Position numbers and translations under genes: made by a program
DNA from: a virus
Lineage: Duplodnaviria > Caudoviricetes
DNA length: 64,000 bases
Reading direction: 5' to 3' (one strand)
IMG/VR virus record: IMGVR_UViG_641736227_000002
In this document: in pieces, positions 465 to 38,421 of the stretch
Layout of the letters: every line of letters begins with the position of its first letter
Position numbering within the stretch: position 1 is the stretch's first letter
The notes under the pieces: model-generated
The model's input: only the letters and a program-made list of their open reading frames with translations
What the model was told of the DNA's origin: nothing
The model's database searches: none

Positions 465-468
465 TGTA

Positions 469-16614: not shown

Positions 16615-16750
16615 AAGTACCTCCAATTTCTTTTATGGTGGAGGTCGATGAAGTCATTTCTAAAACTTTATATAGAGAGATTTTTGCCAAAAATTCTGCC
16701 CTAAAGGGGTTTTATACATAGACCTCCTACGACCTCCACCCTTAAAAACA

Positions 16751-19446: not shown

Positions 19447-19449
19447 CCG

Positions 19450-20247
19450 TTAATCCTCCTGTTCCATGATTGGTAATATTCCATCTTTCTTTAAAAGGTC
19501 ATAAATGAATAAGCGACCCTTTTGTGTCCAATAAGTATGAGGCTTGGAATGAGCTGAACCGTCAGAACCACTGTAAGTATGTGTCTTAGTTGATGTAAGT
19601 CCCATTTCCGCATATTCCTTATACAAGAGCCAAATTTTCTTACCTTGCTTAAACTGAATGCCTTTTTCGTGCAAATACTGGTTCATGTGATTTGCTGTCC
19701 AACCATAATCTTTTGCAATAACCGAGATTGCTACTAAATCCTTACAATTAAGAACCACATCGTAATAACTGGCTTTCGGCTTCATTTCTATAATCTGCTG
19801 ATTCTGAATCGCAACAATCTGCTGCAATGCTGATTTTTCCTCTCGTTCTTTCTTAAGTTCCATAAGAGCATTAATAAGAACATCCGGATTTGCAAGCACC
19901 TCATCAACTGCAAATACTCCGTGTTTTCGGATTGCCGGAAGAACTTCTGATGTCACCCAGTGTTTGAACTTCTTAGCATTAGGCATTTTGCTTGAAAGAA
20001 TCAAACTGTAAAGACCGCTTTCGTTTATAACCGTTAATCCTCTATTGGGAATTTCTAAGGTCGTGTTTTCCGACCTTTGGATTACAGTTCTGTCTTCCTC
20101 ATCTACATGGGTTGAAATTGCGTCCTTGGTATTGCTATAGCCGAGAATCTCTGCAATATCACGTCCTACAAAATATGGCTCCCCATTGATTGTTGTTGTG
20201 CGGATTGAGCCAAACTCCGCATTCTTAAAAATTTGTAATTCGTTCAT
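19450..20247 (-). CDS. Antirepressor (BRO-N + KilAC)
   Basis: INESGLYSLIL...WVTSEVLPAIRK; WTQKGRLFIY. Confidence 0.92.
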   Translation of the reverse strand: MNELQIFKNAEFGSIRTTTINGEPYFVGRDIAEILGYSNTKDAISTHVDEEDRTVIQRSENTTLEIPNRGLTVINESGLYSLILSSKMPNAKKFKHWVTSEVLPAIRKHGVFAVDEVLANPDVLINALMELKKEREEKSALQQIVAIQNQQIIEMKPKASYYDVVLNCKDLVAISVIAKDYGWTANHMNQYLHEKGIQFKQGKKIWLLYKEYAEMGLTSTKTHTYSGSDGSAHSKPHTYWTQKGRLFIYDLLKKDGILPIMEQED

Positions 20248-20338
20248 ATGAATTACCTCCTGTTAGATATTCGAGGTGTATCCCTCTAAGTAACAGGCAA
20301 AGAAAAAGGGCGAGATTTTAACTTCGCCCAGAAAAAAA

Positions 20339-22330: not shown

Positions 22331-22389
22331 AATATTCCTCCATAGCAGACAAAGGCGGCAAAGGAATTCTCTGCCGCCACGTCAATGTG

Positions 22390-22572
22390 TTACTTCAAGT
22401 TCTTCATTCGTTCCTCGTGGTATTCACGGTTTCTTGCATCTCTTTCCAGTTCACGCTTTTCACGTCTTTTGTCATAGATGAAACCTTGAATGGTTGAAAT
22501 AAGCATCGAAATACCAAAACAACCCCAAATCACCACCAACAATGTCATAAAAATCCATTCACTTGTTGTCAT
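22390..22572 (-). CDS. Small membrane protein
   Basis: Hydrophobic N-terminus, charged tail, AAGGAAAGGA RBS. Confidence 0.65.
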   Translation of the reverse strand: MTTSEWIFMTLLVVIWGCFGISMLISTIQGFIYDKRREKRELERDARNREYHEERMKNLK

Positions 22573-22593
22573 AACTTGTCACCGTTCCTTTCC

Positions 22594-23157
22594 TTAAGCC
22601 AAGAAATCATCATCGTCTTCAGTTGCAAAATCGTCCTCTGCTCTAGACTTGCCGCCAAGAGGTTCTCCGTCCTTAATCTTCTGAAGATTGTTAAGCCCGC
22701 AGGCGATACCCTTATTGCCATTGGAATTGAATGCGTAAAGATTGATAGATGCTCTGCCGTATACACCGCTGTAAACCTCACTACGATCAATGATGGTATT
22801 TCTGTCTGCATCTACAATGCCCGGTGCTGTTGCAGAATTTGCATTGATAAAGTAGCTATTTGCATATGTCTCATCATCCGGACGCTCCAAATCTCCGTCA
22901 CGAAGAGGAGTCTTAAGTACTGAAAGTGCCGGTACTGTCTTGCCGTTTCCTTTTAATTTCGATTGACCTTCCTCATATGCAGCCTGAATTGCTTTCTTGA
23001 TTTTCTCCACGGTTACCTTATCTGACTTCGGAATGATAAGGCTGACACTGTACTTCGGTGTACTGCCATTAATTGATTTAGGTTCCCACACATTTGCATA
23101 ACTCCATCTTGTGTTAGGTCCTGTTATTACTTTCATTGGATTATTAAACTTTGCCAT
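22594..23157 (-). CDS. DUF2815 ssDNA-binding protein
   Basis: RWSYANVWEP, PLRDGD, YSGVYGRAS, acidic tail. Confidence 0.88.
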   Translation of the reverse strand: MAKFNNPMKVITGPNTRWSYANVWEPKSINGSTPKYSVSLIIPKSDKVTVEKIKKAIQAAYEEGQSKLKGNGKTVPALSVLKTPLRDGDLERPDDETYANSYFINANSATAPGIVDADRNTIIDRSEVYSGVYGRASINLYAFNSNGNKGIACGLNNLQKIKDGEPLGGKSRAEDDFATEDDDDFLA

Positions 23158-23171
23158 AATATAAATTCCTC

Positions 23172-24293
23172 CTAATTTTCACTAAAATCGTCTTTTGCTG
23201 TATTCATTTCTGGACGCTTGTCACTCTCCGGAACGAGTGTTGGTTTGCCCTGTGGCTTATAAACCAAATTGCCTAAAAGTTCATTGAACTTTGTCTTGCC
23301 GAGAAGAGAAGTCATTGCTGTAATCCCTAACAGCCTTTGTTCATATGGATTGTGTCCTGCCTTTGTTACAGTTTCTGCCACTTTCTCTTCATCGGTGTAT
23401 TTGCGGTTGGAACGTCCCTCGACTATTTTGAAGCCATCGTAGTGTGTTCCGTTCATTGCCTGTGCAAGAGCATATTCTTTAATATCTGTTACCCATGCAA
23501 CAAGCTCATCTGCCTTTTCCAAAATGACTGAGATTTCTGTGTCATCTAAAGTGGATGGCATCTCAAAGTCATATTTTGCAAGTTCCATGTTGTACTCAGC
23601 ACGCTTTCTGCAGGTTGCTTTGGCCTTACAGAACTGACAGTGATTTCCTGCTTTAAATTCACCTTCGCCCTTAAATGCAAGTTGTGCGGTCGGAGCAAGA
23701 ATGGTATCTGCCCAGGAATATAAATCTTCTTTCTTCATAACGAAGGTACTCACATTTTCCCTGCGCGGCTGAAAGATTGTCATGGATACTTCCGTGATGT
23801 CATAAATTCCATCAAAGAGATTCAAAGTACCAAGTGCATAGCACATCATCTGTGGGTTGTTTTGTGCTGAAACTTCCACACCCTTTCCGTGCTTATAATC
23901 AATCACATACAGAGTACCGTCACCGATAATGACACAGTCACCGGTTCCGAACCCCTCTGGAACATACTTGGAAAAATCAAGTTTCTGTTCTATCAGCACC
24001 ACCGGATCTTTGCAGATTTTCTTTGCATCTTCTACTACAGAGGAACAATACTGTGCATATTCTTCAGCACACTGTTCCATCTCTTCATCGTAGTAAGTAA
24101 GGTTGTTTGTCGGATTTCTGCTTTTCATACCGATTGCTTTTTTCAGCTTATGTTCGCAAAGCGTATGGGCATCGGTACCCTGCAGTGCATACTCGCTTGC
24201 CGGATCTTCCTTATCTGCACAAAGCCTTGCTGAAGGCGGACAGTTTAACCACCTGTGGCTTGCTGATGCAGAAAGTATTGCGTGTGCCGCCAT
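23172..24293 (-). CDS. DUF2800 Cas4-like PD-(D/E)XK nuclease
   Basis: LSASASHRWLNCPPS, FGTGD, IDYKHG, HCQFCKAKATC. Confidence 0.88.
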   Translation of the reverse strand: MAAHAILSASASHRWLNCPPSARLCADKEDPASEYALQGTDAHTLCEHKLKKAIGMKSRNPTNNLTYYDEEMEQCAEEYAQYCSSVVEDAKKICKDPVVLIEQKLDFSKYVPEGFGTGDCVIIGDGTLYVIDYKHGKGVEVSAQNNPQMMCYALGTLNLFDGIYDITEVSMTIFQPRRENVSTFVMKKEDLYSWADTILAPTAQLAFKGEGEFKAGNHCQFCKAKATCRKRAEYNMELAKYDFEMPSTLDDTEISVILEKADELVAWVTDIKEYALAQAMNGTHYDGFKIVEGRSNRKYTDEEKVAETVTKAGHNPYEQRLLGITAMTSLLGKTKFNELLGNLVYKPQGKPTLVPESDKRPEMNTAKDDFSEN

Positions 24294-24613
24294 CAGATCA
24301 TCTCCACCTTTTTAAGTAATTCTTCGTACTGTGAAGGGTCAATCGCAGATAGCTTATCTGCACCAAAGCTAGAAATAACCGCTTTTACTTCCTCCGTATG
24401 TCCATCTCTTGACCTACGAGCGAGTACTGCTCTAACTTCTTCTAATGTCAGTGGTCTTTTCTCTGCTGATTCCGGCTTAGGTTCATCTTTTATTGGCTTT
24501 TCTATATCTGCTGCCGAGAACATCTCAGTCAGTGTTTCTGAAATACCAATAAGAATTTCACCACATTTTTTAAGTTCTGTTACCTGTTCAGCTAACTCTT
24601 TCATTTTTCCCAT
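24293..24613 (-). CDS. Conserved phage hypothetical protein
   Basis: LTLEEVRAVLA...FGADKLSAIDP. Confidence 0.75.
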   Translation of the reverse strand: MGKMKELAEQVTELKKCGEILIGISETLTEMFSAADIEKPIKDEPKPESAEKRPLTLEEVRAVLARRSRDGHTEEVKAVISSFGADKLSAIDPSQYEELLKKVEMI

Positions 24614-24815
24614 TAGACTTACCTCCTTCCTTGATTTCTCTTACATCCACGGATTCAACCGTCTGTCCGGGAGCAAGCAAATATACCTGTGTGAAGTCAC
24701 CGAATAAGAATCTTGCAATTCTTGACGGCAATCGCATATCCGCTGCTCTGAGGACGTTGGCTTTCTTACCGTTGGAGTCTGAAACATTGATTGTGATTTT
24801 GTGTTTCAATGCCAT
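24588..24815 (-). CDS. Hypothetical protein
   Basis: RBS AAAGGATGG; first gene after repeated promoter motif. Confidence 0.7.
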   Translation of the reverse strand: MALKHKITINVSDSNGKKANVLRAADMRLPSRIARFLFGDFTQVYLLAPGQTVESVDVREIKEGGKSNGKNERVS

Positions 24816-24904
24816 ATCTGCACCATCCTTTCTGTAAGGCGTTCTCCCTTACAAGTAACAGGCAAAGGAAAATAACGCTTTTTTAACTTTTACCGAAAAA
24901 TTTT

Positions 24905-25519
24905 TTAAAAGTTTTTTCGGATGAACTCAATGGCTCTGTCATATGTCTGTTTAATATTGGCCGGAGATGTCCCTTTTTCCTTAGCAACATCAGTAAATGA
25001 CATTTCTTCAAACCACACCTTTTGAACAACATCTCTTTGTTTCGGTGTCAGCTGACTGATAAGTTCTCGAACACGCAATGTTTCTGGACTTTCTTCCTTT
25101 TCTTCTATAGTTGTCGCTACCTCTAATAAGATTTTGCTTTTACTCATATCTGTATCCGATTCATCATCACCAAACCGATAATCAAGTGAAAGATTGTAAT
25201 TGCTCGGAAATGCCTCTTTGACTGCTGCCTTAACTTCATCATCGCATGGTGCATATCCACGATAGGCTGTTTCTTTTTTTATGTACTCTTCTGTCCAAGC
25301 CTTAATAGTTGCTTTTTCTTCTGCAGTTCTTTCCGGTCTAAGATTTTTGAGATTGTAGTAAACCTCGCTGTCATCTAAGGAATGAAGCATTTTAATATCT
25401 GCCTCTGTTATTCCGTTTTCACCGGGACGAAGTGTCACCTTTTCTTCGTTTCCATCTACGTTTGTAAATGTGTAAGTGTAAGTTCCTCTTTTTGTGGTAT
25501 TTGTCTTAAAAATTTTCAT
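24905..25519 (-). CDS. Sigma-70 region-4 family factor
   Basis: C-terminal LTPKQRDVV...MSFTDVAKEKGTS HTH; start MKIFKT after AGGAGG. Confidence 0.75.
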   Translation of the reverse strand: MKIFKTNTTKRGTYTYTFTNVDGNEEKVTLRPGENGITEADIKMLHSLDDSEVYYNLKNLRPERTAEEKATIKAWTEEYIKKETAYRGYAPCDDEVKAAVKEAFPSNYNLSLDYRFGDDESDTDMSKSKILLEVATTIEEKEESPETLRVRELISQLTPKQRDVVQKVWFEEMSFTDVAKEKGTSPANIKQTYDRAIEFIRKNF

Positions 25520-25920
25520 AAATTGCCTCCTAACTCGGAAGGCAATCATGACAAGATATAAAAATAGGTCTGTTGTAGAGATACACACAGACCCGTTAAG
25601 CCTAAAAAGAGCGCAACAAAGTAAGGGTATCTCTGCACGGCTCGTCCACTGTCTTTATCACAGTGAATCGAAACCTATGAGATATCCTGTCTGATTGCGC
25701 ACTCCGACACGATTTTCTATTTCTTATTTGTGGGGTTCTCCCCTAAAGGGAAGACTTTAATTTGTAGTCTTATACAAAGAAGCCTTTAATTTCGAACCGT
25801 ATGGTTCAAGATTGGTTGTCCAAATCATATTCCTCTACTTAGTAGCCACGAAAAAACGTAAAAAGGACGTCCTCGTTATATATAACGATTGTGATAATTA
25901 AAAAAGATTGGGCAGTATTC

Positions 25921-26124
25921 CTATCGAAGATCGGCTTCGATTGCGTAAAGCTCCGAAAATACATCTGGCAGGTAGGTTGGGTTTAAGTCATAAACGCTAT
26001 TAGCCCCATATTTCTCAAACACAGACTCAGCTACTCGACTATCAAGTTCAGAGCTAATAACAGAAACTGACTGCATGATGCTTGCAATGTAATCGGAATC
26101 ACGGATATTTGCCATTGAAATCAC
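25921..26124 (-). CDS. Hypothetical protein
   Basis: ORF with GAGGTG RBS, divergent from 26344. Confidence 0.6.
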   Translation of the reverse strand: MISMANIRDSDYIASIMQSVSVISSELDSRVAESVFEKYGANSVYDLNPTYLPDVFSELYAIEADLR

Positions 26125-26343
26125 CTCGTTTTTGTTTTGCTTATGCCCTTATTTTAGTCATTTCATATAAGTAAGTAAATTTCTAACATTATCACTTACT
26201 TTTGAGGGTTTACACTTGTATTTCTGCAAATAAGATATATAATAGTAAGTAGTAAAAACTATATTTCAATTATTTTTCACTTACTATTACACATAAAAAA
26301 GCTCCCCCTTTATGCAGGAGAGCTTAATTAAGGAGCATATTAT

Positions 26344-27549
26344 ATGATAGATGCTGAAAATTTTTTTAATTTAGGAACAGATTATTTTTCATTTATTGGA
26401 CAAAAATGTCATTTTGAGATCCAAAAAAATGACAATCCACATTTCGTTTCAAAAAATATTCTTACCGTCGTCTCTGATAGTGATGAACAACTATTTTTTT
26501 CCTTTAGCGGAAACGATGGGCTATGTTTAACTACTGAATTTGGATCAATCATTCATAAAAATATATTAGGAAAATTTCTATCATTACCCTCAAACAATGC
26601 AAAAGCCTTATTGGAGTTTTTTGAAAACTACGGCTACTTTTTCAAAATGCCACCTAATGAAACTAATATTGTAGATTTTAGCCATCTTATACAAGTAACC
26701 TACCACATCAAAGCTGCATTATTACTCATGAATGAATTACAAAATGTCACAATCAATTATGATGAGATCCTTCGTTTAACCCTATTTTTATTACTAGCAC
26801 CACCAATAGAAATGAAAATTACTGAAAAACAAACATATACCGGATATCATGATTCTGTATTTAAAACTTTAGATTCTGTAATTACAATAAATGATAGTTC
26901 TGACTATATCACAATAGATAATGAAGATTATTATAGTATTCCGGACATCATATATGGGAAATCGTTTAACTTGCGTGTTGATGAATATGAAGACATTTCA
27001 ACTGGAGAAAAATTTATGTATTCTTATCCAGGCATTGATGACTCAAGATACAGGAAGATTACAGTAGCCTATAAGAATTGCCATCATGTATCCAAAATTC
27101 AAAGGTTGCTAATTGATTTTCTTTTTCATTTTATGAATTCTAATGGGGTTATTAAGAATGTCTCATTTGATTTGGGCATAGAATTCTATGGAACATCAAA
27201 TTTAGATCTTGATGATAAAATGAAAAAAGCACTGTTAATTATTGCTAAACATGTGCTGTCACAAGAAATCAATCACCATGTTTCTCGAATGAAACCAATA
27301 TATAATCCAGTAACATTAGAACCTTCATGGAAGGCTCCTAATCTCTTGACTGCTTTATATTTTTCTCTCTTCTACATGAAACCAAAATCGGAAATATATA
27401 GAAAATGTGCAAACCCTTCTTGCACCAATTTCTTCCTTGTCAAAACATCAAATAGCAGAAAAAAGTATTGCTGTGATGCTTGTAGGAATGCAAGTAATCA
27501 GCGAGACTATCGCTCTAGACAAAAAAAAATAACCAAGGCAGGCGGATAA
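26344..27549 (+). CDS. CGNR zinc-finger domain protein (possible regulator)
   Basis: C-terminal CANPSC..FF......KKYCCDACRN. Confidence 0.75.
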   Translation: MIDAENFFNLGTDYFSFIGQKCHFEIQKNDNPHFVSKNILTVVSDSDEQLFFSFSGNDGLCLTTEFGSIIHKNILGKFLSLPSNNAKALLEFFENYGYFFKMPPNETNIVDFSHLIQVTYHIKAALLLMNELQNVTINYDEILRLTLFLLLAPPIEMKITEKQTYTGYHDSVFKTLDSVITINDSSDYITIDNEDYYSIPDIIYGKSFNLRVDEYEDISTGEKFMYSYPGIDDSRYRKITVAYKNCHHVSKIQRLLIDFLFHFMNSNGVIKNVSFDLGIEFYGTSNLDLDDKMKKALLIIAKHVLSQEINHHVSRMKPIYNPVTLEPSWKAPNLLTALYFSLFYMKPKSEIYRKCANPSCTNFFLVKTSNSRKKYCCDACRNASNQRDYRSRQKKITKAGG

Positions 27550-27567
27550 TTCCACTTGTCTTGGTTT
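27530..27567. terminator. Bidirectional terminator
   Basis: AACCAAGGCAGG...CTTGTCTTGGTT hairpin between convergent genes. Confidence 0.65.
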
Positions 27568-27572
27568 CTAGA

Positions 27573-28847
27573 TTAATCTACCTCTGGCAAAGAACCATTA
27601 TTTTTAGCCAACTCTTCATCTATGACCTTGGCCAATTTTCTAATTTTGCTTTTATGCGACCCCGTATAATTATTCATTAAAAATCGTATATCAATAACAA
27701 CACCTTGAACATGCTCATATAATTTAGCATCATTTTTCCATTCACCTGTTGCTTCACCGATATTCAAGAAATAATCATCAGATACATTAAAAGGATTCTC
27801 GCCTCTATTAAATGGCATTAAAAAAGCATTGTATATAGGCAAATCTCCATACTTGGTTTTAAGTTCTTGGCAATTATCAATGTATTCGCCATATGTAATT
27901 TGCTTATTTATTGATGACGATTCTGGAAGATGCCTTGGCTCACCAGTCACACCATATCTATAATACTTTGCATCAAGAACATAAATTTTATCATCACATA
28001 TCATGATACTATCCGGCTCTAATGCGTGATTGTCTTTATTTGCATTAAATTTGAGATTCCATTTGGTTCTTGGGAAGAATTCTTCTTTTCCCCGGATTCC
28101 AAAAACTTCATCTATGAGTTTTTCCCAGACATACTCAAATCTATCTGTTCCAAAATAATACTGTTTATTATCATTCTCTGTATCTAAGTATTCCAGCATC
28201 TGAATCATCGCTTGAAATAACAACTTATCCTTGTCGTTATGAGTAACGCTAAGTTTTTTTCTCAAAGCAAATAAAAAGCGTTCTGATTCTAATGTAATAT
28301 GAGGATCTGGAGGAAGATGCGGTGTAAACAACCACCCCAATGTACTAAAAGCCTCATATACGCAGTACTTATGGATTTGAGTAATCAGATTTTTCTCATT
28401 TGGACTGGAGCCCTTTACAGTATATCTATCAAAGAAAGGCGAGCCATCTTCTTGAAAAAACTTCACATTTTTTCTAAGAGATGCAGGAAAATCTATTTTC
28501 CCTCGGTCAGCAGTTTTCCTTACCTGTTCTCTCTCCTTGTAGTAATCACTCTGTTCCAAAAAGTATCGGATAATATTCATATATGCATTTACAGGAAAGT
28601 TTACAGACTGTGGTGCTGCAAACTCATCCATAGCTAAAAGTCTATCTTTCGAATCATTAAAAGTAGATATTACCTCTATAAGTTTTAGAATATCTTCTCT
28701 TATATCTTCTTCACTATCTGGCAAACGATAACCCATTGGGAAGAAAACCATAGCATTATTTGTGTCAGCTTTTACTCCAACAAAGCGGTCGCCATCACCA
28801 TTTTTATTAACATGACATCTGACTTTCAAATTCAATCCTAAGTCCAT
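27573..28847 (-). CDS. LlaJI-family restriction endonuclease (McrC-like)
   Basis: FVG..., FEYVWEKLID, LEPDSI...VLDAKYY, SSINKQITYGEY, YNAFLMP. Confidence 0.88.
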   Translation of the reverse strand: MDLGLNLKVRCHVNKNGDGDRFVGVKADTNNAMVFFPMGYRLPDSEEDIREDILKLIEVISTFNDSKDRLLAMDEFAAPQSVNFPVNAYMNIIRYFLEQSDYYKEREQVRKTADRGKIDFPASLRKNVKFFQEDGSPFFDRYTVKGSSPNEKNLITQIHKYCVYEAFSTLGWLFTPHLPPDPHITLESERFLFALRKKLSVTHNDKDKLLFQAMIQMLEYLDTENDNKQYYFGTDRFEYVWEKLIDEVFGIRGKEEFFPRTKWNLKFNANKDNHALEPDSIMICDDKIYVLDAKYYRYGVTGEPRHLPESSSINKQITYGEYIDNCQELKTKYGDLPIYNAFLMPFNRGENPFNVSDDYFLNIGEATGEWKNDAKLYEHVQGVVIDIRFLMNNYTGSHKSKIRKLAKVIDEELAKNNGSLPEVD

Positions 28848-28867
28848 CGGTTTTCCTCCTTTCGTAA

Positions 28868-30541
28868 TTATTCGTTATCTTCATCAGAAACTGAATTATT
28901 CTCATCTACACCTTCAATAATCAGCTTTCTTAAATTCTCATGATATACCTTAAATCTATCATTGCCTTTTGAAGCATTAAATGTTTCAATTACCGTTTCA
29001 AGACTCTTATATCTGCGAGTATCAAATGTATCCGGATGAGAAAATTTGAATGCATCATCCCAAAGATATTTAATTACCTTTTCTGCAAATCGAGCATTCT
29101 TATGTTCAGCCTCTATGATTTGTTTCTCAGAATCCCCATCTTGTGTTTCAACATAAGCTAAGTCATCTGCAGATACAAAGTAAGCACCTAAACGCTTATC
29201 TTCAGAAGACGTCACATTATTTCTACGCAGGATTTCTTCATTAATTGCCTCACAGAACTGTTTCCAAGATACAGTAGTATCAAGAATCGGTTTGTCAGCA
29301 TATTCATGCTTAACAAAAGAATTCTTTATCATTCTCATAATCCATCTGCGTTGGAAAGCTGTATCAAGAGTAAAAACATTTTGGTCAGATGTATTCATTG
29401 TACCAAGAATAGAGAGGTTAGCAGGTATACGAACCTTTCTTTCTGAATCACCATATACCTCTAAAGCAATATTTTCATTAGTAATTCCGTATTCACTTGT
29501 ACCTTTTTTAAAGCCATCCTTATCTTTATCCATTCTATCAAGCAGCTGGAATATCTCACCAAAGATAGCCGGTGCGTTACCTCTATTAATTTCTTCGATG
29601 ACAAGATAATATGACCTTTGTGGGTCTTCATATGCCTTCTTTAAAATCTTGGTAAATGGTCCCGGTTTGAACTCGTATCGCACCTTTTCCTTGCCTTCGT
29701 CATCTTTTTTTACAACAGGAAGAATTTGACCCACAAAATCAGAGTACATATAATCTGGATGGAAAACTAAACGCTCCATACACTCCTCAACATCACAATA
29801 TTCGTGCTGGATTGTCCAACTCTTTCCAGAACCAGGAACACCATATAAAAGAATATTTTCGCCACTTGTTTTTCTAAGTTGCTCTTTTTGAGCATAAGAA
29901 AGTCCATCCGTACCATTTCCTTGTAATTCCTCAACATTTACAGGTGTATTAGTTGCCAATTTGAAAAACTGATTGTTAAGCAAAGACAACTGTCCGTCTC
30001 CATCAATGCCTCTATTAGGAATTACGCCAAATACATCGTAACTAAACTGAGTCTTTTTCTTCATAATAATCAAATACGAACCCGCATGAATCATTTTTCT
30101 GAAGCTGACAAAATCTTCCCCATCAAAATTTATCAAGGAAACTTGTATTTGATCTGCTTGATTCTTTCTTCGACTTCTTACAATTGATGTACAACTTTTC
30201 TTTTTTGCATCACTGAAGAATATTTCTGTCTGATTATCACCACTTAAATATTTAATATTGCTCTCATATAAAAACATGGGAACTTGGGTAATAAAGTATT
30301 TTTTTAACGTTGCATCTGACTCGATGTTGTTAAAATACCCATCAGACCTCAAATAAGGAAAAATATCTATCTGATTTCCAGTAATAGCAATATGTGTTTG
30401 ATTTGTTGTTCTATTATCATCAAGTGTATTAGAAGCCTCTAATTTCTTTATTATTAACCCGTCATAATCATTCGAATCAATAATAGTTCCCGTAGAATCA
30501 AGCACAGACACAACCAATGAAACTGCTGAATTAAAATCCAT
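28868..30541 (-). CDS. McrB-like AAA+ GTPase restriction subunit
   Basis: GVPGSGKS, FHPDYMYSDFVG, IEEINRGN, GTMNTSDQN, DTAFQRRW. Confidence 0.92.
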   Translation of the reverse strand: MDFNSAVSLVVSVLDSTGTIIDSNDYDGLIIKKLEASNTLDDNRTTNQTHIAITGNQIDIFPYLRSDGYFNNIESDATLKKYFITQVPMFLYESNIKYLSGDNQTEIFFSDAKKKSCTSIVRSRRKNQADQIQVSLINFDGEDFVSFRKMIHAGSYLIIMKKKTQFSYDVFGVIPNRGIDGDGQLSLLNNQFFKLATNTPVNVEELQGNGTDGLSYAQKEQLRKTSGENILLYGVPGSGKSWTIQHEYCDVEECMERLVFHPDYMYSDFVGQILPVVKKDDEGKEKVRYEFKPGPFTKILKKAYEDPQRSYYLVIEEINRGNAPAIFGEIFQLLDRMDKDKDGFKKGTSEYGITNENIALEVYGDSERKVRIPANLSILGTMNTSDQNVFTLDTAFQRRWIMRMIKNSFVKHEYADKPILDTTVSWKQFCEAINEEILRRNNVTSSEDKRLGAYFVSADDLAYVETQDGDSEKQIIEAEHKNARFAEKVIKYLWDDAFKFSHPDTFDTRRYKSLETVIETFNASKGNDRFKVYHENLRKLIIEGVDENNSVSDEDNE

Positions 30542-30554
30542 TTGCTATTCCTCC

Positions 30555-31985
30555 TTATAAATATTTTTTTATGACCGTAGCAATTGCTCTTCCTAATAAA
30601 GGAGGTACTGAATTGCCTATCTGCATATATGTTTTTGTATAAGCACCCCTAAAGAAATAATCGTCTGGGTACGATTGAACCCTTGCAGCTTCTCTCGGTG
30701 TTAATCCTCTTGCTTGTGTTGGATGAATATACATATTGCAATCAAATTTCATATGTGCTGTTATAGTCTTACAAACTTTATTTTCTTCAAGTTTAAAATA
30801 CTTGTCTTTGAATATTCCGTTTCTGCGACTATATGGCATTATATCAGCGATTTTAGGATCATCCGACCTATCACCTTGATTCAATCTTCCATAAATTTCG
30901 ATATCTCTATCATTATTAAATCTAGCTTTGTGATTAAATGTGACCTTGCAGTTTCTATTCTGATTAATCATTGCAAGGTATGGCGTCATAACTGTATTTA
31001 CTGCGCCTTCTATCTTTCTTCCCGATACCTCTGAATCAAGCTCGGTAGAATTTCTTTTCCTTGAAGCCCTTAATGAACGTAACCCATACAATGCATCTGC
31101 AAGGTTATAATCCGGTATTGTCTTCGACAGAGATTCTATTTCATCAAATAAAACCTCATTGTCTATTCCAAGTTTATTACCTATGAAAATTAATCTTTCT
31201 CTATTCTGTGGAACACCAAAATCTTTTGCATTTAAAATTCTACATGATACCTTATATCCAATATTAGTAAAGTCCTCTATAACTTGAGAAGATACAGATT
31301 TCATGCCCTTAACATTTTCCATAACAAAAAATTTCGGAGAAACAATGCTTACAACTTTCACATAACTCTTGTAGAGCTTGTTTCTTGGATCATCAATAAG
31401 ACGTTGTCTATTTGCCATACTAAATCCCTGGCAAGGAGGACCACCTACAACTACATCCACACTTGAGAATCTTTGAAGCTCAGTGATATTTTCTATAACA
31501 TTGTTAATATCTCCTAAGATAATGTTTTCCCGAGGCGTATCCGGATGATTATGTGCATAAGTATCAACGCAACAAGGTTCAATATCGTTAGCTAAGCTTG
31601 TTATAAATCCATTTTGAGTAAAACCTAATGATAAACCCCCTGCTCCACAAAACAAATCAATCATGACAGGAGCATTTCTATCATAGCTTTCTATTCTTGA
31701 TTTGATATAAGAATTACAATACTTATTTATTGGGCAAGAATCGCAATTACCATCTCTGCAGCATTCATCATAAAGCCTTGTAAGATATTTCTGTAGTTTA
31801 GATGATTTTTTAACTTTTTGCTTAAACTCTGATGTTCTGCCATCAAGCATTTCATTGCCGATTGACAATGCCATTCGTTCTGCAACGCTTATTGCCTGTT
31901 CTTTATCATAATCATTTACACCTTCATATGACGCTGACAAAATAGATGTAATTTCTGCTATTTCATCATTGTAATTATTCATCAT
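30555..31985 (-). CDS. C5-cytosine MTase with Cys-cluster N-terminal extension
   Basis: DLFCGAGG, GGPPCQGFS, ENVKG, QNRER, IGNSVPP. Confidence 0.93.
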   Translation of the reverse strand: MMNNYNDEIAEITSILSASYEGVNDYDKEQAISVAERMALSIGNEMLDGRTSEFKQKVKKSSKLQKYLTRLYDECCRDGNCDSCPINKYCNSYIKSRIESYDRNAPVMIDLFCGAGGLSLGFTQNGFITSLANDIEPCCVDTYAHNHPDTPRENIILGDINNVIENITELQRFSSVDVVVGGPPCQGFSMANRQRLIDDPRNKLYKSYVKVVSIVSPKFFVMENVKGMKSVSSQVIEDFTNIGYKVSCRILNAKDFGVPQNRERLIFIGNKLGIDNEVLFDEIESLSKTIPDYNLADALYGLRSLRASRKRNSTELDSEVSGRKIEGAVNTVMTPYLAMINQNRNCKVTFNHKARFNNDRDIEIYGRLNQGDRSDDPKIADIMPYSRRNGIFKDKYFKLEENKVCKTITAHMKFDCNMYIHPTQARGLTPREAARVQSYPDDYFFRGAYTKTYMQIGNSVPPLLGRAIATVIKKYL

Positions 31986-32913
31986 TCCATTCGTCCAACC
32001 TTTCTAATTCTTGTCTAACTTTCGCAGCAACAGCTCTAGAAACATTAACTGTTACAGCATTTCCAAACTGCTTATAAGCTTGGGAATCAGATACAGGGAT
32101 AACAAAATCATCTGGAAATCCTTGTAATCTTGCACATTCTCGAGGAGTCAATCTTCTAACACGATTATTCTGAGTAACGTAGTTATCTTGACATGCTCTA
32201 TGCATTTTGGCCATGGTTGCACACAATGGTCTTGCTATTTTCAAATCTATTTCCGATTTAGCTTTGTACCCTCCAGTACCGTCAGATAAAATAGTTGGTA
32301 ATATTCTTTCGGATAAGAAGTATTTATCATCCACCTCTGTCTCTAATAAATCTTGCAATGTCAGATTTAATTCTTGTTTGTCTGGAAATTCAAACTCTGC
32401 ATTATCATTTGCAAAGCACACTATATATGTACGATTTCTAGTCTGAGGGATTCCATAATCTGCAGTATTAAGAACTTGATCAAACACTTTGTAATTCAGC
32501 TCGTTTTCTAAAACTCTTTTTATAGTTTTAAATGTCTTTCCTTTATTGTGTGTTCTTAACGATCTAACATTCTCAAGAATCACAGTTCTCGGTTTTCTAC
32601 CTTGATCAATCTTATATTTTAAAATCTCAGCAATTCTGAAAAAAAGTGTTCCTCTCGTATCCTCAAATCCTTTTTCAGCCCCCATCATGCTAAAAGGCTG
32701 ACACGGAAATCCACCTATCAAAACATCAAACTCAGGTAAAGAGTTCAACTCAATTTCATTTATATCGCCCAATATGACATTATCGCCAAAATTTGCCTTA
32801 TATGTTTCTACTGCATATTTATCAAAATCATTAGCCCATACAATATTGTAGCCTGTTTCATCAAATCCTTTGTCCAAACCACCACAACCACAAAATAGGG
32901 ATAGTACTCTCAT
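31975..32913 (-). CDS. C5-cytosine MTase
   Basis: SLFCGCGG, GFPCQPFS, ENVR, PQTRNR, QFGNAV. Confidence 0.95.
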   Translation of the reverse strand: MRVLSLFCGCGGLDKGFDETGYNIVWANDFDKYAVETYKANFGDNVILGDINEIELNSLPEFDVLIGGFPCQPFSMMGAEKGFEDTRGTLFFRIAEILKYKIDQGRKPRTVILENVRSLRTHNKGKTFKTIKRVLENELNYKVFDQVLNTADYGIPQTRNRTYIVCFANDNAEFEFPDKQELNLTLQDLLETEVDDKYFLSERILPTILSDGTGGYKAKSEIDLKIARPLCATMAKMHRACQDNYVTQNNRVRRLTPRECARLQGFPDDFVIPVSDSQAYKQFGNAVTVNVSRAVAAKVRQELERLDEWNDE

Positions 32914-32918
32914 TGATA

Positions 32919-33110
32919 TTACTCCTTTTGATTTTTCTCTTTAATGTATTCCCTAATCCATACGCCAATTTCTATCGATGCTTTTTTGCCTTCTTCACTT
33001 AATAATTGCATAAATTCTTTTTTGATTTCTGGCTCAATGGCTATTTCAATTTTGGCAGTTTTGACTTTCCCACAAGGTCTACCATAGTTTTTCGTTCCTT
33101 TGTTGCTCAT
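32919..33110 (-). CDS. Small ribbon-helix-helix-like controller of the RM operon
   Basis: 63 aa; GRP, alternating KIEIAI strand then two helices; first gene of RM operon. Confidence 0.55.
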   Translation of the reverse strand: MSNKGTKNYGRPCGKVKTAKIEIAIEPEIKKEFMQLLSEEGKKASIEIGVWIREYIKEKNQKE

Positions 33111-33510
33111 AAGTCTCCTCCATCATTATTTAATCCACATTAGATATGGTTCTAATCAGGGTTTTTAATATTATAGCATAAGATGGTGTGCAATTTCAAT
33201 CTGTAATAGTGAATACAGATGTAAATTTTTTATATATTTATTGGCATGTTATTATTAATTATGTATAATTTAATTTTATACTAATTCTGACAGATACGGT
33301 GTGCATACTTGAACGATAGACATTTTTCACTTTACTTCTGAACGATAACTTTCATAAGCAATCGTTCAAGCGTTGTGCATTGTGAAACTCTGTAAATTAT
33401 CCTCAAAGATTTTGCAGGGAAAAAAAATAAGACCTCAAATCGGTCTGTTCTCAAAACCCCTTATATCAAGCACTTTCTCGTGGTGTGCATATCTTGTAAT
33501 GGTATCAATT

Positions 33511-33807
33511 TCATAGTGGCGATTTCACAAGTTTGTTAAATGCAGCAACCCGCTCATGGATGTCTGTATCAGAAAACATTTTCTTTGCCGCACCATCTCC
33601 CAGCAACTTATCAAATGTCTGGTCAATAATCTTACATTCTGCCCGGACACCCTCTGCATTTAAGGCTCCGTCAATCCCATGTTTCTTTTCATATTCCATT
33701 AGTTCTTCAAACGTCTGCTGCTTCACATTGTTAAATCGCTCTATCATATCCGCATCCAGAGCAGAGAATTTAAACTCTGCCCCATTCCATTTAAAAATCT
33801 TGTTCAT
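33511..33807 (-). pseudogene. Tail assembly chaperone of prophage B, 3'-truncated at junction with element A
   Basis: Follows tail tube genes; ends abruptly ...NKLVK|SPL* and is followed by unrelated AT-rich DNA instead of tape measure. Confidence 0.7.
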
Positions 33808-33841: not shown

Positions 33842-34087
33842 CTATGCTCCTGCTGTTACCGTAATGGCGCAGGTTGCCGTCTTATTTCCATCTGTCGTTG
33901 TCACTGTCACATCCGCGGCCCCTGCTGCAACCCCGGTCACTTCCCCAGTATCAGATACCTTTGCAATACCAGTATCCGTGCTGAACCATGTAACTGTCTT
34001 GTCTGTAGCATCTGCAGGCTCTACGGTTGCCGTAAGTGTCTCTTTCGCCGCAACTGCAAGGGACAGCGTTGTTTTATTCAACGCCAC
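33842..34087 (-). CDS. Ig-like (Big_2) domain, likely +1 frameshift extension of tail tube
   Basis: VTGVALNKTTLSL...TLTATVEPADATDKTVTW...G.VTGV..G...VTVTT.DG. Confidence 0.88.
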   Translation of the reverse strand: MALNKTTLSLAVAAKETLTATVEPADATDKTVTWFSTDTGIAKVSDTGEVTGVAAGAADVTVTTTDGNKTATCAITVTAGA

Positions 34088-34100: not shown

Positions 34101-34604
34101 TTAAGAGGGTGTATCGCCTTTCGCTGTAAATTTCTTAGTGCTGGTATTAAATGTTCCCTCGACTACATCCCCGATACCTAACAGGTTACCTTCACAGTTC
34201 ATTTCTCCATCTTCGTTTCCAAAGCTGGCTACTTCGATCGCCACGTGGAACTTGCGGGCATGGTAGGTATTCTCTGCGCTTTCCTTCTGATCCAGATCTA
34301 CGATCACGTAGTCTGTCTCTGCATCTGCTCCTGTTTTTAAAAGTTCTCCGATCTCACAGATATAGGCAATCGCCTCTTCTGATCGAATCTGGTCCGCTGT
34401 GTACGGTGCCTGCCACTCGTACCCGGTGATTCCCTTGCTGGTAGATGCATCGTTTACGTACCGTTTTGAACTGGTCTGCGCTCCCGGTTCCTCATTAAGA
34501 TCCGTGAACCCTGTCCCCATCAGGACAAAATTTTCTGCCTCTGCGGTCCCAATGTCCAGATAGTTCGCCTGCATCCTTCTCTGTCTTACACTTTTTAATG
34601 CCAT
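34101..34604 (-). CDS. Major tail (tube) protein
   Basis: Position; MGTGFTDLNE.P...KRYVND; ends CCC TCT TAA. Confidence 0.8.
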   Translation of the reverse strand: MALKSVRQRRMQANYLDIGTAEAENFVLMGTGFTDLNEEPGAQTSSKRYVNDASTSKGITGYEWQAPYTADQIRSEEAIAYICEIGELLKTGADAETDYVIVDLDQKESAENTYHARKFHVAIEVASFGNEDGEMNCEGNLLGIGDVVEGTFNTSTKKFTAKGDTPS

Positions 34605-34605
34605 G

Positions 34606-35037
34606 TTATACCTTCCTTTCCTGGTAATAAATAAAGCGGCACTGAATCTGATACTTTGCCTTGTCAAGCTCCGTATCAAACGCATAACCGCTCGTAATCG
34701 CTTCGATTTTTATTGCTTCCTTACCTTTCTCCAATTCCGGGAACTCCCCGGCCTCAGAGAATTGTTCCAGCCAGTCTGAAAAGTGCTCAAAGAACCCGAT
34801 GTTTTCAAGGTTCTGCCGCACTTCTTCGCCGTATAGCTCCCGACTGGCAAAATTAAATAGATGTTGCCGTTTGGTATTTCCGACAATATCTTTTTTCAAA
34901 ACTGTTTGTGATGGAACGGATTCTATCGAGTAGTACGTTGTGTCACTACCCAGGTAATCCACCCCGATCCCTTTGCAATACTCATCTAGATACGGGCATT
35001 GCTTAACAATGTTCCGTATAGCCTCCACAATCGTCAT
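34606..35037 (-). CDS. Tail terminator-like protein
   Basis: Position; AKYQIQCRFIY C-terminus. Confidence 0.7.
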   Translation of the reverse strand: MTIVEAIRNIVKQCPYLDEYCKGIGVDYLGSDTTYYSIESVPSQTVLKKDIVGNTKRQHLFNFASRELYGEEVRQNLENIGFFEHFSDWLEQFSEAGEFPELEKGKEAIKIEAITSGYAFDTELDKAKYQIQCRFIYYQERKV

Positions 35038-35360
35038 TTTGGCTTTCCTCCTACAAACCTCGCAATAGATACCAGAACCTCTCGCCCTCTGTCGGCAAAC
35101 GCTCTCTTGTCCCAATGTTTTCCACGCAGTCCCTTGCCCTTATTTTCTTCGTAATTCTTCTTTGCATATGGGGTGATGTACTTTATGCAGTACGTTGTCT
35201 CAATCGCAGTATTTTTCAGTGGACCGTTGAGAAAAGGGACGTATGCATCCGATATTCTGCGCACTTCATGCACAGCAAGTCTCTGACCGGGACCACCTTT
35301 CTGCAGGTTCCTTTCTGTAAGGATTACGTTTGCAGGAGCAATCTTGACTTTTATCTTCAT
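35034..35360 (-). CDS. Minor capsid / tail completion protein
   Basis: YVPFLNGPLK, YITPYA, RGKHWD. Confidence 0.75.
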   Translation of the reverse strand: MKIKVKIAPANVILTERNLQKGGPGQRLAVHEVRRISDAYVPFLNGPLKNTAIETTYCIKYITPYAKKNYEENKGKGLRGKHWDKRAFADRGREVLVSIARFVGGKPK

Positions 35361-35785
35361 TCAGCCGTCACCTTCCAATGCTGCATTTCCGGGCTGCCGT
35401 TGTCGTTCGTCTCCACAACGGCGATCACCCGCACATCATCATAGGCATTTTTCAACCGTTCTTCGTCCTTTGCGCTGGTCAGTTCATCTTCCACGATGCC
35501 ACGGACCACCAGGTCCCCGGCTTCGACCGTAAAAAATCCCGTCTTTTCTGTCTCCTTCACAAAGTTTTTCGGTTTCCTGAACTGCTTCTCTGTCTCTGCC
35601 GTAAACGGGATATAGATTTCTGCCACATCAGCACTTACAATCCCCTTGTCTGTGGGCTGCACGGCTGTGGTATCCTGCCAGTTCACGCCTTTTAGGACTG
35701 TCCGGTAATAGCGGTTCGTCCCGGTATCCCGGTCATATACCTTGTTGTAGAGTGTTATGTCTGCGTTTGTAACCATTACCGACAC
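35357..35785 (-). CDS. Head closure-type protein
   Basis: TNADITLYN, GDLVVRG, HWKV; position. Confidence 0.7.
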   Translation of the reverse strand: MSVMVTNADITLYNKVYDRDTGTNRYYRTVLKGVNWQDTTAVQPTDKGIVSADVAEIYIPFTAETEKQFRKPKNFVKETEKTGFFTVEAGDLVVRGIVEDELTSAKDEERLKNAYDDVRVIAVVETNDNGSPEMQHWKVTAE

Positions 35786-36147
35786 CCCCTGTATAACAAC
35801 CCGGTATGGATTAAGTACGGATAAGCAGCTGCATACTGTTTCTTTGCCGCTGCCGCCTCTCTTGTTTGTCCGTCCTGCTGCTCCGTTACATAGGATACAG
35901 AGACATTTCCGACCGTCTCGGACTTCTTCTCCTGCTGTCCTACTGCATCGGCTTTATACATAACCTCCGCAACAGCACAGGCAGCCAGCCTGGCCTCTTC
36001 CGGGATCTCTGTATCATCTATCCTGCCGAACGTGATGTACTTTACATAGATACTTGCCCGAAGAATGGTAGAAGAAAAGGCAGCTTCCGGTATGGTGCTG
36101 CCATGGAACTGTTCCTGGTAAAACTTATAGTCTGCGTACTCTACCAT
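35776..36147 (-). CDS. Head-tail connector
   Basis: YADYKFY, ACAVAE, SETVGNVSVSY, TGLLYRG. Confidence 0.82.
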   Translation of the reverse strand: MVEYADYKFYQEQFHGSTIPEAAFSSTILRASIYVKYITFGRIDDTEIPEEARLAACAVAEVMYKADAVGQQEKKSETVGNVSVSYVTEQQDGQTREAAAAKKQYAAAYPYLIHTGLLYRGCR

Positions 36148-36163
36148 ACCGTATTACCTCCTT

Positions 36164-37042
36164 CTATGATGCTGGTGTTGCTGGTGTCTTTGCAAACTTC
36201 GCAAGCACAACTTTTGCATCGTTTGACAGGACAACAGTGTAATGTTCATCCGCAGTCACAAGGGTAGTCCTTGCTTTTACATTTCGGTCAGGCTCAAAGT
36301 TTACGTCACGTTTCATGTAAATTGTAAGTGCCGCAGTATCCTCGTCTACTTCCTGGTCGGACTGTGTTTTTACGATCGGACAGATATAGCAATCAATGCT
36401 ATTTACCCTTTTTACAGGGACTTTCTTAGACGGAACGACCTGACACCCGCAGATTTCACCGATGACACCCCTCATTACAACTTCAAGTGGATACTGCTTA
36501 ATGTCCTTGAAATCCGGGTCTTTTCTTAACTGTGTAATCTGTTTTGGATGTACATACATGATCTTAGCGAGCTGATCCTCTTCCTCAAACAAGTCCACAG
36601 CGTCTACAATTCCATCGTAATTAATCACATTTGCAGAGCCGTCATATGCCAGCTTTGCAGTCTGCAACGCATCCATGGCATCATTATCCACTTTGGATGC
36701 GATAGACAAGGCAATCTGATTTGTTGCCTCCCCCTGTGGATCTCCATATCCAGATAAAATTGCTTCATCGGTCAACTCTACGGCTTTTGCCGCTTTCTTA
36801 ACCTTGGCGGTCGTTGTAGATGCCGTTAAAACGGTTGTCCCCATTTCCACGCCTTCGGCTACGTCTTCCGCATCTCCGATGTATGCGTACTTTGGTACTG
36901 TAATCGTATCGCCAGGAACTCCGCTGAGCGTTGTATCTACTGCTGCAATCGGCGTGATCTTGATTTTCTTCGGCACTTTGGCGGAAATCATATCCGCCAT
37001 GACCTCCGGGTCAATAATGTTCTCTAATTTTGTTACTGCCAT
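36164..37042 (-). CDS. Major capsid protein (N4-gp56 family-like)
   Basis: IDPEVMADMI, PGDTITVPKYAYIGDAEDVAEG. Confidence 0.9.
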   Translation of the reverse strand: MAVTKLENIIDPEVMADMISAKVPKKIKITPIAAVDTTLSGVPGDTITVPKYAYIGDAEDVAEGVEMGTTVLTASTTTAKVKKAAKAVELTDEAILSGYGDPQGEATNQIALSIASKVDNDAMDALQTAKLAYDGSANVINYDGIVDAVDLFEEEDQLAKIMYVHPKQITQLRKDPDFKDIKQYPLEVVMRGVIGEICGCQVVPSKKVPVKRVNSIDCYICPIVKTQSDQEVDEDTAALTIYMKRDVNFEPDRNVKARTTLVTADEHYTVVLSNDAKVVLAKFAKTPATPAS

Positions 37043-37056
37043 TGTTACCTTCCTTT

Positions 37057-37677
37057 CTATTTTCTTAGTTCGGCATACAGATCAGGATCTTCCTTTTTCA
37101 AGGCAACTCTATCCCTGTATCCCATTTTGTTAAATGCTTCTTTTGTTACCTCTGCCCCTGGCAACGGATCACCGCCACCTGTCCCCTTGACAATTCTAGG
37201 GGCCGGCTTATCGCTTTCAAATAGATAATCATTTTCGTTTTTTAAAGTCTCAAGCTGTTTATCCAGGCCGATGATCTCTCCCTCATTGAATTTCAGGCCA
37301 TCCATATCAAGTAAAGCCTTGACTGCCTTGGTATTCTTAGCCTTTGCCCCTGTAAGAGCCTCTGAGAGCGCATAATCAAACTGCATGGCCTGGATCTTTT
37401 TATTTGCTTCTGCCTCTGCATCTTCTGCTTTCTGTTTCCAATCGTCTGCTGCCTTCTGAATACTTTCCACGTCCATGTCTTTAAATTCTTCGATCTGCTT
37501 ATCAGCATCATCAAGTCGGGTTTGTAAATCATCTACCTGTTCCTTATAGCTGTCACGAGCCTGTTCTGCCTTGGTCGTTTTTCTCTGTTCTGCAGCAATG
37601 TCTTTCCCGTTTTCTGCCATGATCTGGTCAATGACATCCTGTGAAAGATTTAAGCCTTTTAAAAATTCTGTTTTCAT
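37057..37677 (-). CDS. Scaffolding protein (Phage GP20 family)
   Basis: MKTEFLKGL...IMAENGKDI; AKNTKAVKALLD; GLDKQL; YLF. Confidence 0.88.
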   Translation of the reverse strand: MKTEFLKGLNLSQDVIDQIMAENGKDIAAEQRKTTKAEQARDSYKEQVDDLQTRLDDADKQIEEFKDMDVESIQKAADDWKQKAEDAEAEANKKIQAMQFDYALSEALTGAKAKNTKAVKALLDMDGLKFNEGEIIGLDKQLETLKNENDYLFESDKPAPRIVKGTGGGDPLPGAEVTKEAFNKMGYRDRVALKKEDPDLYAELRK

Positions 37678-37700
37678 GTTTCTGTTCTCCTTTCGCATTA

Positions 37701-37763
37701 GGTTGTTTTAGGTGTGTAACCATCCACCCCGAAACCGACTATTTAAGGTCTAATCTCCTGACC
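37701..37763 (-). promoter_or_regulatory. Tandem pseudoknot leader of scaffold gene (GP20 RNA motif-like)
   Basis: GGTC-AGGAGATTA-GACC-TTAAAT-AGTC and GGTG-GATGGTTACA-CACC-TAAAAC-AACC. Confidence 0.55.
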
Positions 37764-37851
37764 GATTAATTTGTTGCATAAAAATAACACGCCATGAGCG
37801 TGTCAGTACGGCGTAGCCCTGCCGCTGGGAGATGATCGGACCACCGCCTCT

Positions 37852-38058
37852 CTAATCTTCCTCTTTTAGATAATTTAATGCCTCCACAAGTGCTGTATTT
37901 AGAAATCGGTTCATCGCTTTTAACTGCTTATTTTCATTTTTTAATGTGTCTATCTTCATCATGTATTTATCATGAGTTTCAGCGATCTGCTGGTTATACT
38001 CATCTATTGACATGCAGATTTCACTGTCCTTTTTGTTAATGAAACTTTTTTCTACCAA
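37852..38058 (-). CDS. Small coiled-coil hypothetical protein
   Basis: GAAAGGAG RBS; heptad pattern. Confidence 0.6.
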   Translation of the reverse strand: MVEKSFINKKDSEICMSIDEYNQQIAETHDKYMMKIDTLKNENKQLKAMNRFLNTALVEALNYLKEED

Positions 38059-38115
38059 TGTGATTCTCCTTTCAAAATGGGCAAAAATACCACCTGAGAT
38101 TTTATCAGGTAGTAT

Positions 38116-38421
38116 TTAGTAGGTTTCAAATCTTATCTTGATATTTCCGTCATTTTCAGACCATTCCGCCCAAAAAATAAATTCTGTCCATTTGTCAGAT
38201 ACTTTCCCCTGCTGCCATTCCGTCTCAAATTCTTTGGCTTTCTCTTTTGGAATCAGCCATCCTCGCATATCTTCACATTCCAAATCAGGAGTCTCTAAGA
38301 TATTCCCTTCTCCACAGTCAGCAAAGAATACCTTGCCTTGGCTTTTTGCCTCCATCTGCACAAGCTCCCAGAACCTATTGAATTTATCGCTTTCTTGCGT
38401 TCTTAACCCTAACATTGTCAA
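38116..38421 (-). CDS. Putative immunity protein of MuF toxin
   Basis: Small acidic ORF overlapping the 3' end of toxin-bearing minor capsid; AAAGGAGG RBS. Confidence 0.65.
   Translation of the reverse strand: MTMLGLRTQESDKFNRFWELVQMEAKSQGKVFFADCGEGNILETPDLECEDMRGWLIPKEKAKEFETEWQQGKVSDKWTEFIFWAEWSENDGNIKIRFETY

Follow-up and report, generated by a model that had tools for sequence, protein, structure and literature searches.

A serine-recombinase prophage inside the tail module of another prophage, probably through off-target integration

The window, a 64-kb stretch of DNA analysed here at its full length, corresponds to G000:C1:2996410-3060409 of a closed single-contig genome of 3.59 Mb. 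Near its middle, the tail operon of one prophage (B) stops within a gene and gives way to the terminal DNA of another prophage (A). The locus raises the questions of whether A has truly integrated into B, why it did so in a tail gene, and what would follow for B. An earlier note had described a prophage inside a prophage and had read it as phage-on-phage parasitism or an excision-gated switch. The nested arrangement held up, as both gene sets and both junctions were found; the prophage in prophage is real, and its insertion was probably accidental.

Gene content of the two prophages

Apart from one cargo gene of A, the minus strand carries every gene from position 1 to about 56,000, with A co-oriented with B. 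The GC content falls into three blocks of about 40%–44% (1-26,000), 30%–36% (26,000-33,500) and 42%–50% (34,000-55,000). Prophage A comprises 52,713 bp (G000:C1:2977223-3029935, one copy of the overlap counted). Its right end lies at window 33526 and its left end 19.2 kb to the left of the window, which holds the right-hand 33.5 kb (1-33526, minus strand, assigned from Pfam/PHROGs matches and the boundaries). Within this part, Pfam and PHROGs searches revealed head and packaging genes at 1-8000 (minus strand; major head 2975-4165, TerL 6166-7767), followed by a replication module at 9435-25588 (minus strand). The latter includes genes for a primase/helicase (16751-18994), a DNA polymerase (20339-22330), an SSB-like protein (22594-23157), a DUF2800 exonuclease (23172-24293) and a sigma-like regulator (24905-25588), all on the minus strand.

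The right end of A carries low-GC (30%–36%) cargo on both strands (26344-33110), delimited by the GC profile and Pfam. It consists of a CGNR zinc-finger gene (26344-27549, plus strand, Pfam), which is alone among A's genes in lying on the plus strand; a minus-strand LlaJI-type restriction operon, with LlaJI (27573-28847), AAA_5 (28868-30541) and two C5 methylase genes (30555-31985 and 31975-32913), all recognized by Pfam; and a 63-aa ORF (32919-33110). To the left of the window, where 60 kb were examined, A continues with genes for a 1061-aa tape measure, tail proteins, an amidase and an HTH protein. Two overlapping large serine recombinase genes come next (597 and 527 aa), in the direction in which the earlier note had expected A's recombinase genes. 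A GmrSD-type nuclease, a DUF6508 protein and a 386-aa protein without known function complete A at its left end. Defence-type cargo is thus seen at both ends of A: the left end has the GmrSD/DUF6508/386-aa genes (G000:C1:2977563-2980877), the right end the LlaJI system.

In total, A encodes terminase, portal, capsid, tape measure, tail, lysin and replication genes. Because it possesses its own packaging, head, tail, lysis and replication genes, we regard A as an autonomous temperate phage and not as a satellite. It is collinear with phage NatCom_43819 (PV036412.1), with about 80% nucleotide identity over most of its length. Both recombinases are conserved there, and the 597-aa one is 89% identical to its counterpart. 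Judged by this nucleotide identity and collinearity with a classified phage, A is Ca. Heliusvirales-like, a group formally defined by TerL phylogeny. The two phages share the same kind of end module, LlaJI-type cargo and both recombinases; they differ in arm sequence, in flank and in the cargo beside the attachment site. The cargo at the two ends of A differs from that of this close relative.

Prophage B, of siphovirus type, begins, on the window side of the boundary, with the truncated DUF6673 gene (33511-33807, minus strand), assigned by Pfam/PHROGs and its homologues and annotated as a putative tail assembly chaperone. Preceding it in the direction of transcription are a gene for an 81-aa Ig-like (Big_2) protein (33842-34087, minus strand) and one for a 194-aa candidate major tail protein (34101-34685, minus strand), both assigned from PHROGs and the gene order in an empty-site contig. 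The Big_2 ORF starts 13 nt past the candidate major tail gene. In some phages, programmed frameshifting adds Ig domains to tail proteins. Further along lie B's head and packaging module (35034-43409, minus strand; major capsid 36164-37042, large terminase 41329-42594) and then its early genes, located between the head/packaging genes and a CI/LexA-like S24 repressor gene (56456-57085). This repressor opens a lysogeny module on the plus strand (56456-60578), which also contains genes for an Abi_2 protein (58195-59163) and a tyrosine integrase (59274-60578). The gap between repressor and integrase (57151-59163) is filled by a 286-aa gene and the Abi_2 abortive-infection-type gene at about 31% GC; the two are probably B's own defence cargo.

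Beyond the far end of A, the tail genes of B resume, as the earlier note had anticipated: the missing 3' end of DUF6673 is followed by Gp15 (221 aa, PF06854), an 1829-aa tape measure and Dit-like and Tal-like proteins. An amidase and a Rha protein of B come next, and then host PRD-type regulators. The tape measure is a single ORF of 1829 aa here (G000:C1:2970897-2976386) and two ORFs (1204 and at least 599 aa) in metagenome contig L010 (positions 4858-10085), which is 99.95% identical at 4.5x coverage; the split in L010 is either a real break or a contig error. The candidate attachment site of B is a 13-nt repeat only, found at the stop codon of the integrase (window 60566) and at G000:C1:2964608 (chance expectation about 0.16), and no tRNA gene was found near B's ends.

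Junctions, empty site and end module

The 98-aa ORF at the boundary ends in ...AAC AAA CTT GTG AAA TCG CCA CTA TGA, where the earlier note had put it, and its DUF6673 match covers profile positions 4-87 of 114. Intact homologues are 114 aa long and terminate in ...NKLVNLREAQVESYNKLVQSMAGD. Comparison with them revealed that A is inserted inside codon 95 of B's 114-codon gene, so that the 98-aa protein consists of residues 1-94 from B followed by K-S-P-L and a stop from A's DNA. The codons for the final 20 residues of the intact protein now lie 52.7 kb off, at G000:C1:2977160-2977222, where the missing end (...NLREAQVESYNKLVQSMAGD, stop) stands immediately beyond A. Between the truncated gene and A's coding genes lie about 400 nt of non-coding DNA with no Gp15 or tape measure downstream, in agreement with the view that A's non-coding terminus has taken the place of B's remaining tail genes.

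A natural empty site is provided by L010, in which DUF6673, Gp15 and tape measure follow each other in unbroken order. The window agrees with L010 up to CTTGTGAA, and the far junction agrees with it from GAACCTGCG. Therefore, the two matches overlap by GAA on the minus strand, and this trinucleotide (TTC on the plus strand, 33524-33526) is common to attL, attR and the empty site, with GA or AA as the 2-nt crossover. The place of the junction mark in the earlier note was right, its exact point 1-3 nt off the true overlap. Another candidate for the crossover, ACAAGTTT, was ruled out by the empty-site alignment. Upon in silico deletion of A, the joined sequence matches L010 over 10,085 nt with 5 mismatches and 0 gaps, and the 114-aa product of the rejoined gene has the same sequence as database protein P0023. 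The insertion of A was hence conservative, with a 3-nt GAA overlap, no duplication and no loss, which bears out a site-specific integration of A into a gene of B's tail module.

The attachment site of A has the properties of a serine-integrase substrate. The P half-site of attR is a 22-nt arm (33502-33523) that forms an imperfect inverted repeat with the arm at A's other end, the outer 10 nt of the two arms, GTATCAATTT and AAATTGATAC, being a perfect inverted repeat. Reconstituted, attP has two 22-nt arms in imperfect dyad around GAA. This agrees with the usual description of such sites, namely about 40-50 bp with an imperfect dyad around a short core and no target duplication. Both the 527-aa and the 597-aa recombinase match PF00239 (Resolvase), PF07508 (Recombinase) and PF13408 (zinc ribbon), and both contain the catalytic serine motif YxR(V/I)S, as GYARVSTD and AYARISME. 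DUF4368 gave no match at E <= 0.001 in either of them, and no candidate for the recombination directionality factor of excision emerged among the small ORFs beside the recombinase genes, which match no known family.

Next to the arm lies a subterminal module of repeats. The composite repeat GGTGTGCATA-CTTGAACGAT occupies 33298-33317 (plus strand), with partial copies at 33361-33370 (inverted) and 33482-33491. Across the 64-kb window, GGTGTGCATA occurs only at 33298 and 33482 (0.17 expected) and CTTGAACGAT only at 33308 (plus) and 33361 (minus; 0.14 expected), confirming the repeats and the inverted pair pointed out previously. In the 3.59-Mb genome, the composite GTGCAT-N3-TTGAACGAT has exactly two copies, one at each end of A and both in the same orientation, 95 nt inside the left end and about 220 nt inside the right end. 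As related copies adjoin the arm in every related element end examined, the repeats belong, by sequence comparison, to the conserved portion of the end module; binding of an accessory protein to them is a guess. A consensus scan further revealed a terminator-like hairpin with a T-run at 33430-33446 (minus strand), 78 nt inside A, which B's late transcription would meet as A is entered.

At the opposite end of A (G000:C1:2977223-2977434), a 43-codon ORF faces outward, together with a promoter-like site and a GGAGG ribosome-binding site. In circular A this ORF continues into window 33461-33523 (minus strand), amounting to 63 codons with a stop just before the hairpin. It is open in A, PV036412.1 and several relatives, and broken in others. 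In the present lysogen its reading frame differs from that of the chaperone remainder, and its stop codon lies 30 nt ahead of Gp15. Among the junction flanks, 10 of 15 are in frame with it. The idea that the leader exists for in-frame fusions was dropped, as it is not open in several relatives; the frame bias probably arises because the targets resemble a protein-coding motif in which the GA core is part of an Asp codon.

Choice of the insertion site

Where do A and its relatives integrate? Nine other contigs carry the 23-nt arm of A's left junction without any change, next to seven different flanks, none of which is DUF6673. Conservation on these metagenome-assembled contigs is limited to the last 150-180 nt, and no A-type recombinase genes were found near their ends. 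An exact-arm scan of IMG/VR with both arms and the repeat module gave no match, and among 400 genomes of the host family the arm pattern, with up to 3 mismatches, is present in this genome only. Relatives of the 527-aa recombinase with 60%–83% identity occur on more than 566 IMG/VR contigs and are accompanied by related arms. A sister recombinase cluster (L054-L057), whose members are 96.6%–98.3% identical to each other, has four different flanks. For comparison, multi-targeting large serine recombinases have been defined as clusters of at least 90% identity with more than 3 distinct target gene clusters (PMC10083194). A's own arm has 8 distinct flanks; because the contigs of the 7 other flanks lack the recombinase genes, one enzyme acting on many targets is seen directly for the sister cluster only.

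The targets of the relatives are methyltransferase, IS256-type transposase, group II intron reverse transcriptase, serine recombinase and ABC ATPase genes, besides a few short or non-coding flanks and two more methyltransferase motifs. The commonest recurring target, accounting for 9 of about 24 distinct junction flanks, is the DNA of methyltransferase motif I. At nine loci (L016, L052, L054, L061, L063, L065, L072, L110 and L120) representing seven or more arm variants, the junction with the element end falls precisely on the Asp codon of this motif (DPxCG[ST]GG). These genes encode N6-adenine methyltransferases of HsdM-like (type I) or type IIL restriction-modification systems, and one of them heads a complete hsdM-hsdS-hsdR operon. 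The nearest relative with a recombinase on its contig (83% identity, nearly the same arm) also sits at motif I. Because divergent recombinases have this one target in common, motif I looks like the primary attachment site of the family, following the logic of PMC10083194.

We thus asked how the site in B compares with motif I, using a position weight matrix built from the nine motif-I right half-sites, with B's site left out. The half-site of B, GA|ACCTGCGAGAGGCACAGGTGGA..., scores 19.6 bits and ranks 7 among the 509,803 GA positions in the genome. It is alike to the canonical site of L072 at 19 of 28 nt, read in another frame by B. On the other hand, the six higher-scoring sites of the genome are unoccupied, and neither a resemblance nor a dyad symmetry is evident in the left half of B's site. 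The site is closer to HsdM-type targets (17-19 of 28 nt) than to those of type IIL (13 of 28), which are the ones used by A's two closest arm relatives. A tblastn search with two HsdM flank proteins at 1e-3 found no HsdM-like gene in this genome. From the high rank of the half-site and the absence of an HsdM-like gene, we therefore infer that A's insertion was an off-target event at a pseudo-attB in B's DUF6673 gene, splitting the late operon, a reading to which we assign a probability of about 70%. The attP of A would have recombined with a look-alike site inside the tail-chaperone-like gene, without phage B being singled out.

The alternatives differ in how much they make of B. Had A evolved to target B's late gene, as parasite or as a switch, B's tail and lysis genes would work only after A excises, or A's outward-reading end module would drive them. 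In keeping with such a scheme, the insertion lies in a late structural gene with A co-oriented with B, excision restores the gene exactly in silico, the promoter-like site, ribosome-binding site and 43-codon ORF at A's left end face Gp15, and the composite persists in 104 blocks of the assembly collection; helper-embedded PICIs offer a precedent (PMC10111431). However, A encodes its own structural proteins and does not depend on a helper, and the outward ORF neither keeps the frame of the chaperone remnant nor reaches Gp15, ending 30 nt short of it. Relatives of A sit in methyltransferase, transposase, intron, recombinase and ABC-ATPase genes. Moreover, all other DUF6673 genes seen are uninterrupted, though the identical site is available in 1,670 blocks. 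The earlier note's suggestion of parasitism or a gated switch is therefore unlikely. The search for further insertions in homologous chaperone genes that it had proposed found none: in the 20 of 400 host-family genomes (one per genus) with DUF6673, all 23 copies have Gp15 directly downstream, and 18 of 18 homologue clusters are uninterrupted.

It is similarly improbable that B's DUF6673 site is the true primary attB of A's recombinase pair and that the other flanks stem from recombinases of different specificity. The junction is clean and reproducible across many assemblies, and recombinase genes are unseen on the identical-arm contigs, which would leave room for this reading. Yet a recombinase-binding arm shared over all 23 nt points to one enzyme or to closely similar ones, the nearest recombinase-carrying relative (83% identity) sits at methyltransferase motif I, and the DUF6673 site is abundant and almost never occupied. 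The truncated protein is present in 104 collection blocks, and on the 24 independent contigs read, the truncated gene is always followed by A's 63-aa ORF and the methylase genes. The identical intact allele is present in 1,670 blocks, with Gp15 and tape measure downstream in the 8 places listed. Given 104 versus 1,670 blocks and 23 of 23 intact copies, the interruption is confined to one lineage while the site is widely available. A tblastn search of a phage collection with the truncated chaperone gave no match. The same 24 contigs dispel the caveat of misassembly: two prophages misjoined at a repeat would hardly yield one junction on 24 independent contigs and on a closed single-contig chromosome, both junctions fit one reciprocal recombination event, and an overlap of only 3 nt leaves no repeat to mislead an assembler, which makes an artefact extremely improbable. 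A broader idea, that this Heliusvirales lineage has evolved a preference for dispensable defence or mobile genes, among them methyltransferase motif I, transposase, intron and recombinase genes and rival prophages, with lysogeny disabling a restriction system or a rival prophage as the selected outcome, is speculative and in our view rather doubtful. Under it, A would be a lock on B, whose virions are completed only once A has left, and expression of B's distal tail and lysis genes might be governed by the outward-facing promoter and leader at attL.

Consequences for B and relation to known nested elements

An AlphaFold2 model of the intact DUF6673 protein (pLDDT 92) comprises a beta-hairpin and helices, and according to this model A's cut takes away most of the last predicted helix (residues 83-111). 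Among the predicted viral structures of BFVD, the top match (E 7.6e-4, TM 0.65) bears the label tail assembly chaperone, such labels being automatic; comparison of the model with solved structures by Foldseek and VIA-align gave nothing above background. The gene order major tail, Ig-like, DUF6673, Gp15, tape measure is found in B and in every intact locus seen. No frameshift link of the G-T type was found between DUF6673 and Gp15 at this locus, where Gp15 has its own AGGTGA ribosome-binding site and ATG, with an in-frame TGA two codons upstream.

The chaperone-like protein would lose its last 20 residues, which are replaced, and Gp15, tape measure, baseplate and lysis genes would be displaced by 52.7 kb from B's late promoter, behind the terminator-like hairpin. 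Because the late genes are displaced in this way, it is a reasonable inference that B would be unable to make tails or to lyse its host unless A first excises precisely. Such an excision would restore the DUF6673 gene exactly. Furthermore, the B+A composite of about 95 kb, a size estimated from the gene maps, would exceed the packaging capacity of a phage of about 42 kb.

Nested insertion has precedents of several kinds. Streptococcal ICEs carry multiple serine integrases and are found in hsdM, in mutT or, within a second ICE, in traG; they use secondary sites when off the primary one (PMC4701971). They resemble A in their tandem large serine recombinases, in coding-gene insertion with 2-8 bp identities, in hsdM as a recurrent target and in the choice of a mobile element as target. 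In contrast, they are conjugative and have three integrases, whereas A, with its two recombinases, is a tailed phage of a gut Clostridia host and has its presumed secondary site in a phage tail gene. In helper-embedded PICIs, the inner element resides in a late gene of a prophage, and this interrupted gene can be expressed only once the element has excised (PMC10111431). These are satellites without a full structural set, carry integrases of one tyrosine-integrase clade and occupy 14 recurrent late-gene sites in Gram-negatives, whereas A is an autonomous phage with serine recombinases at a site that is not recurrent. Full-size prophages within prophages form composite clusters in STEC/EPEC (PMC8112680), where the attB copies lie in effector (moron) loci, apparently host-derived, tyrosine integrases are used and no structural gene is split. 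As for the enzymes, multi-targeting large serine recombinases use many attB sites per cluster, with DUF4368 in 63% of the clade (PMC10083194); A's recombinases differ from most of that clade in lacking DUF4368, and they are paired. TndX of Tn5397 combines a preferred Fic-domain coding target with looser secondary sites and a central GA dinucleotide (PMC4430133).

The case of A and B thus extends the known nested elements by an autonomous phage with serine recombinases that has split a tail gene in a Firmicutes prophage. Nested prophages have been documented mainly in enterobacteria, with tyrosine integrases and satellites, and serine recombinases are represented by an ICE within an ICE; here the case is base-resolved, comes from gut Clostridia and includes empty-site proof. 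Two common gut phage lineages are involved, A's being among the most widespread gut phages and B likewise a common gut prophage. The pair offers a natural setting in which to study whether a prophage is able to silence or gate a second one.

In Bacillus subtilis, SPbeta interrupts spsM and skin interrupts sigK, both by means of large serine recombinases. Prophage phi10403S in Listeria comK is a gene-interrupting switch, as cited in PMC4701971. A shares with these three the precise interruption of an ORF, reversible by excision; they reside in a host gene, at one dedicated site and with a defined excision programme, none of which was seen for A.

In our view, the family's bias towards methyltransferase motif I, and towards mobile or defence genes in general, is a more interesting lead than the nested insertion itself. 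In the phage literature searched, we found no description of phage serine recombinases repeatedly at the AdoMet-binding motif of restriction-modification methyltransferases. Landing at motif I, with spill-over to look-alike sites, bears on how lysogeny reshapes host defence, and the preference bears on the prediction of off-target sites of recombinase tools. Nesting is also seen within the family. On an IMG/VR contig (L092), the end of an A-like element adjoins, near position 6520 and in the same reading frame, the sequence for the N-terminal domain of a closely related serine recombinase, one member of the family occupying the recombinase gene of another. On the 111-kb contig IMGVR_UViG_2511231106_000004, which is called viral, two related recombinase loci (L057 and L100) lie about 50 kb apart and may represent tandem or nested prophages of the same family.
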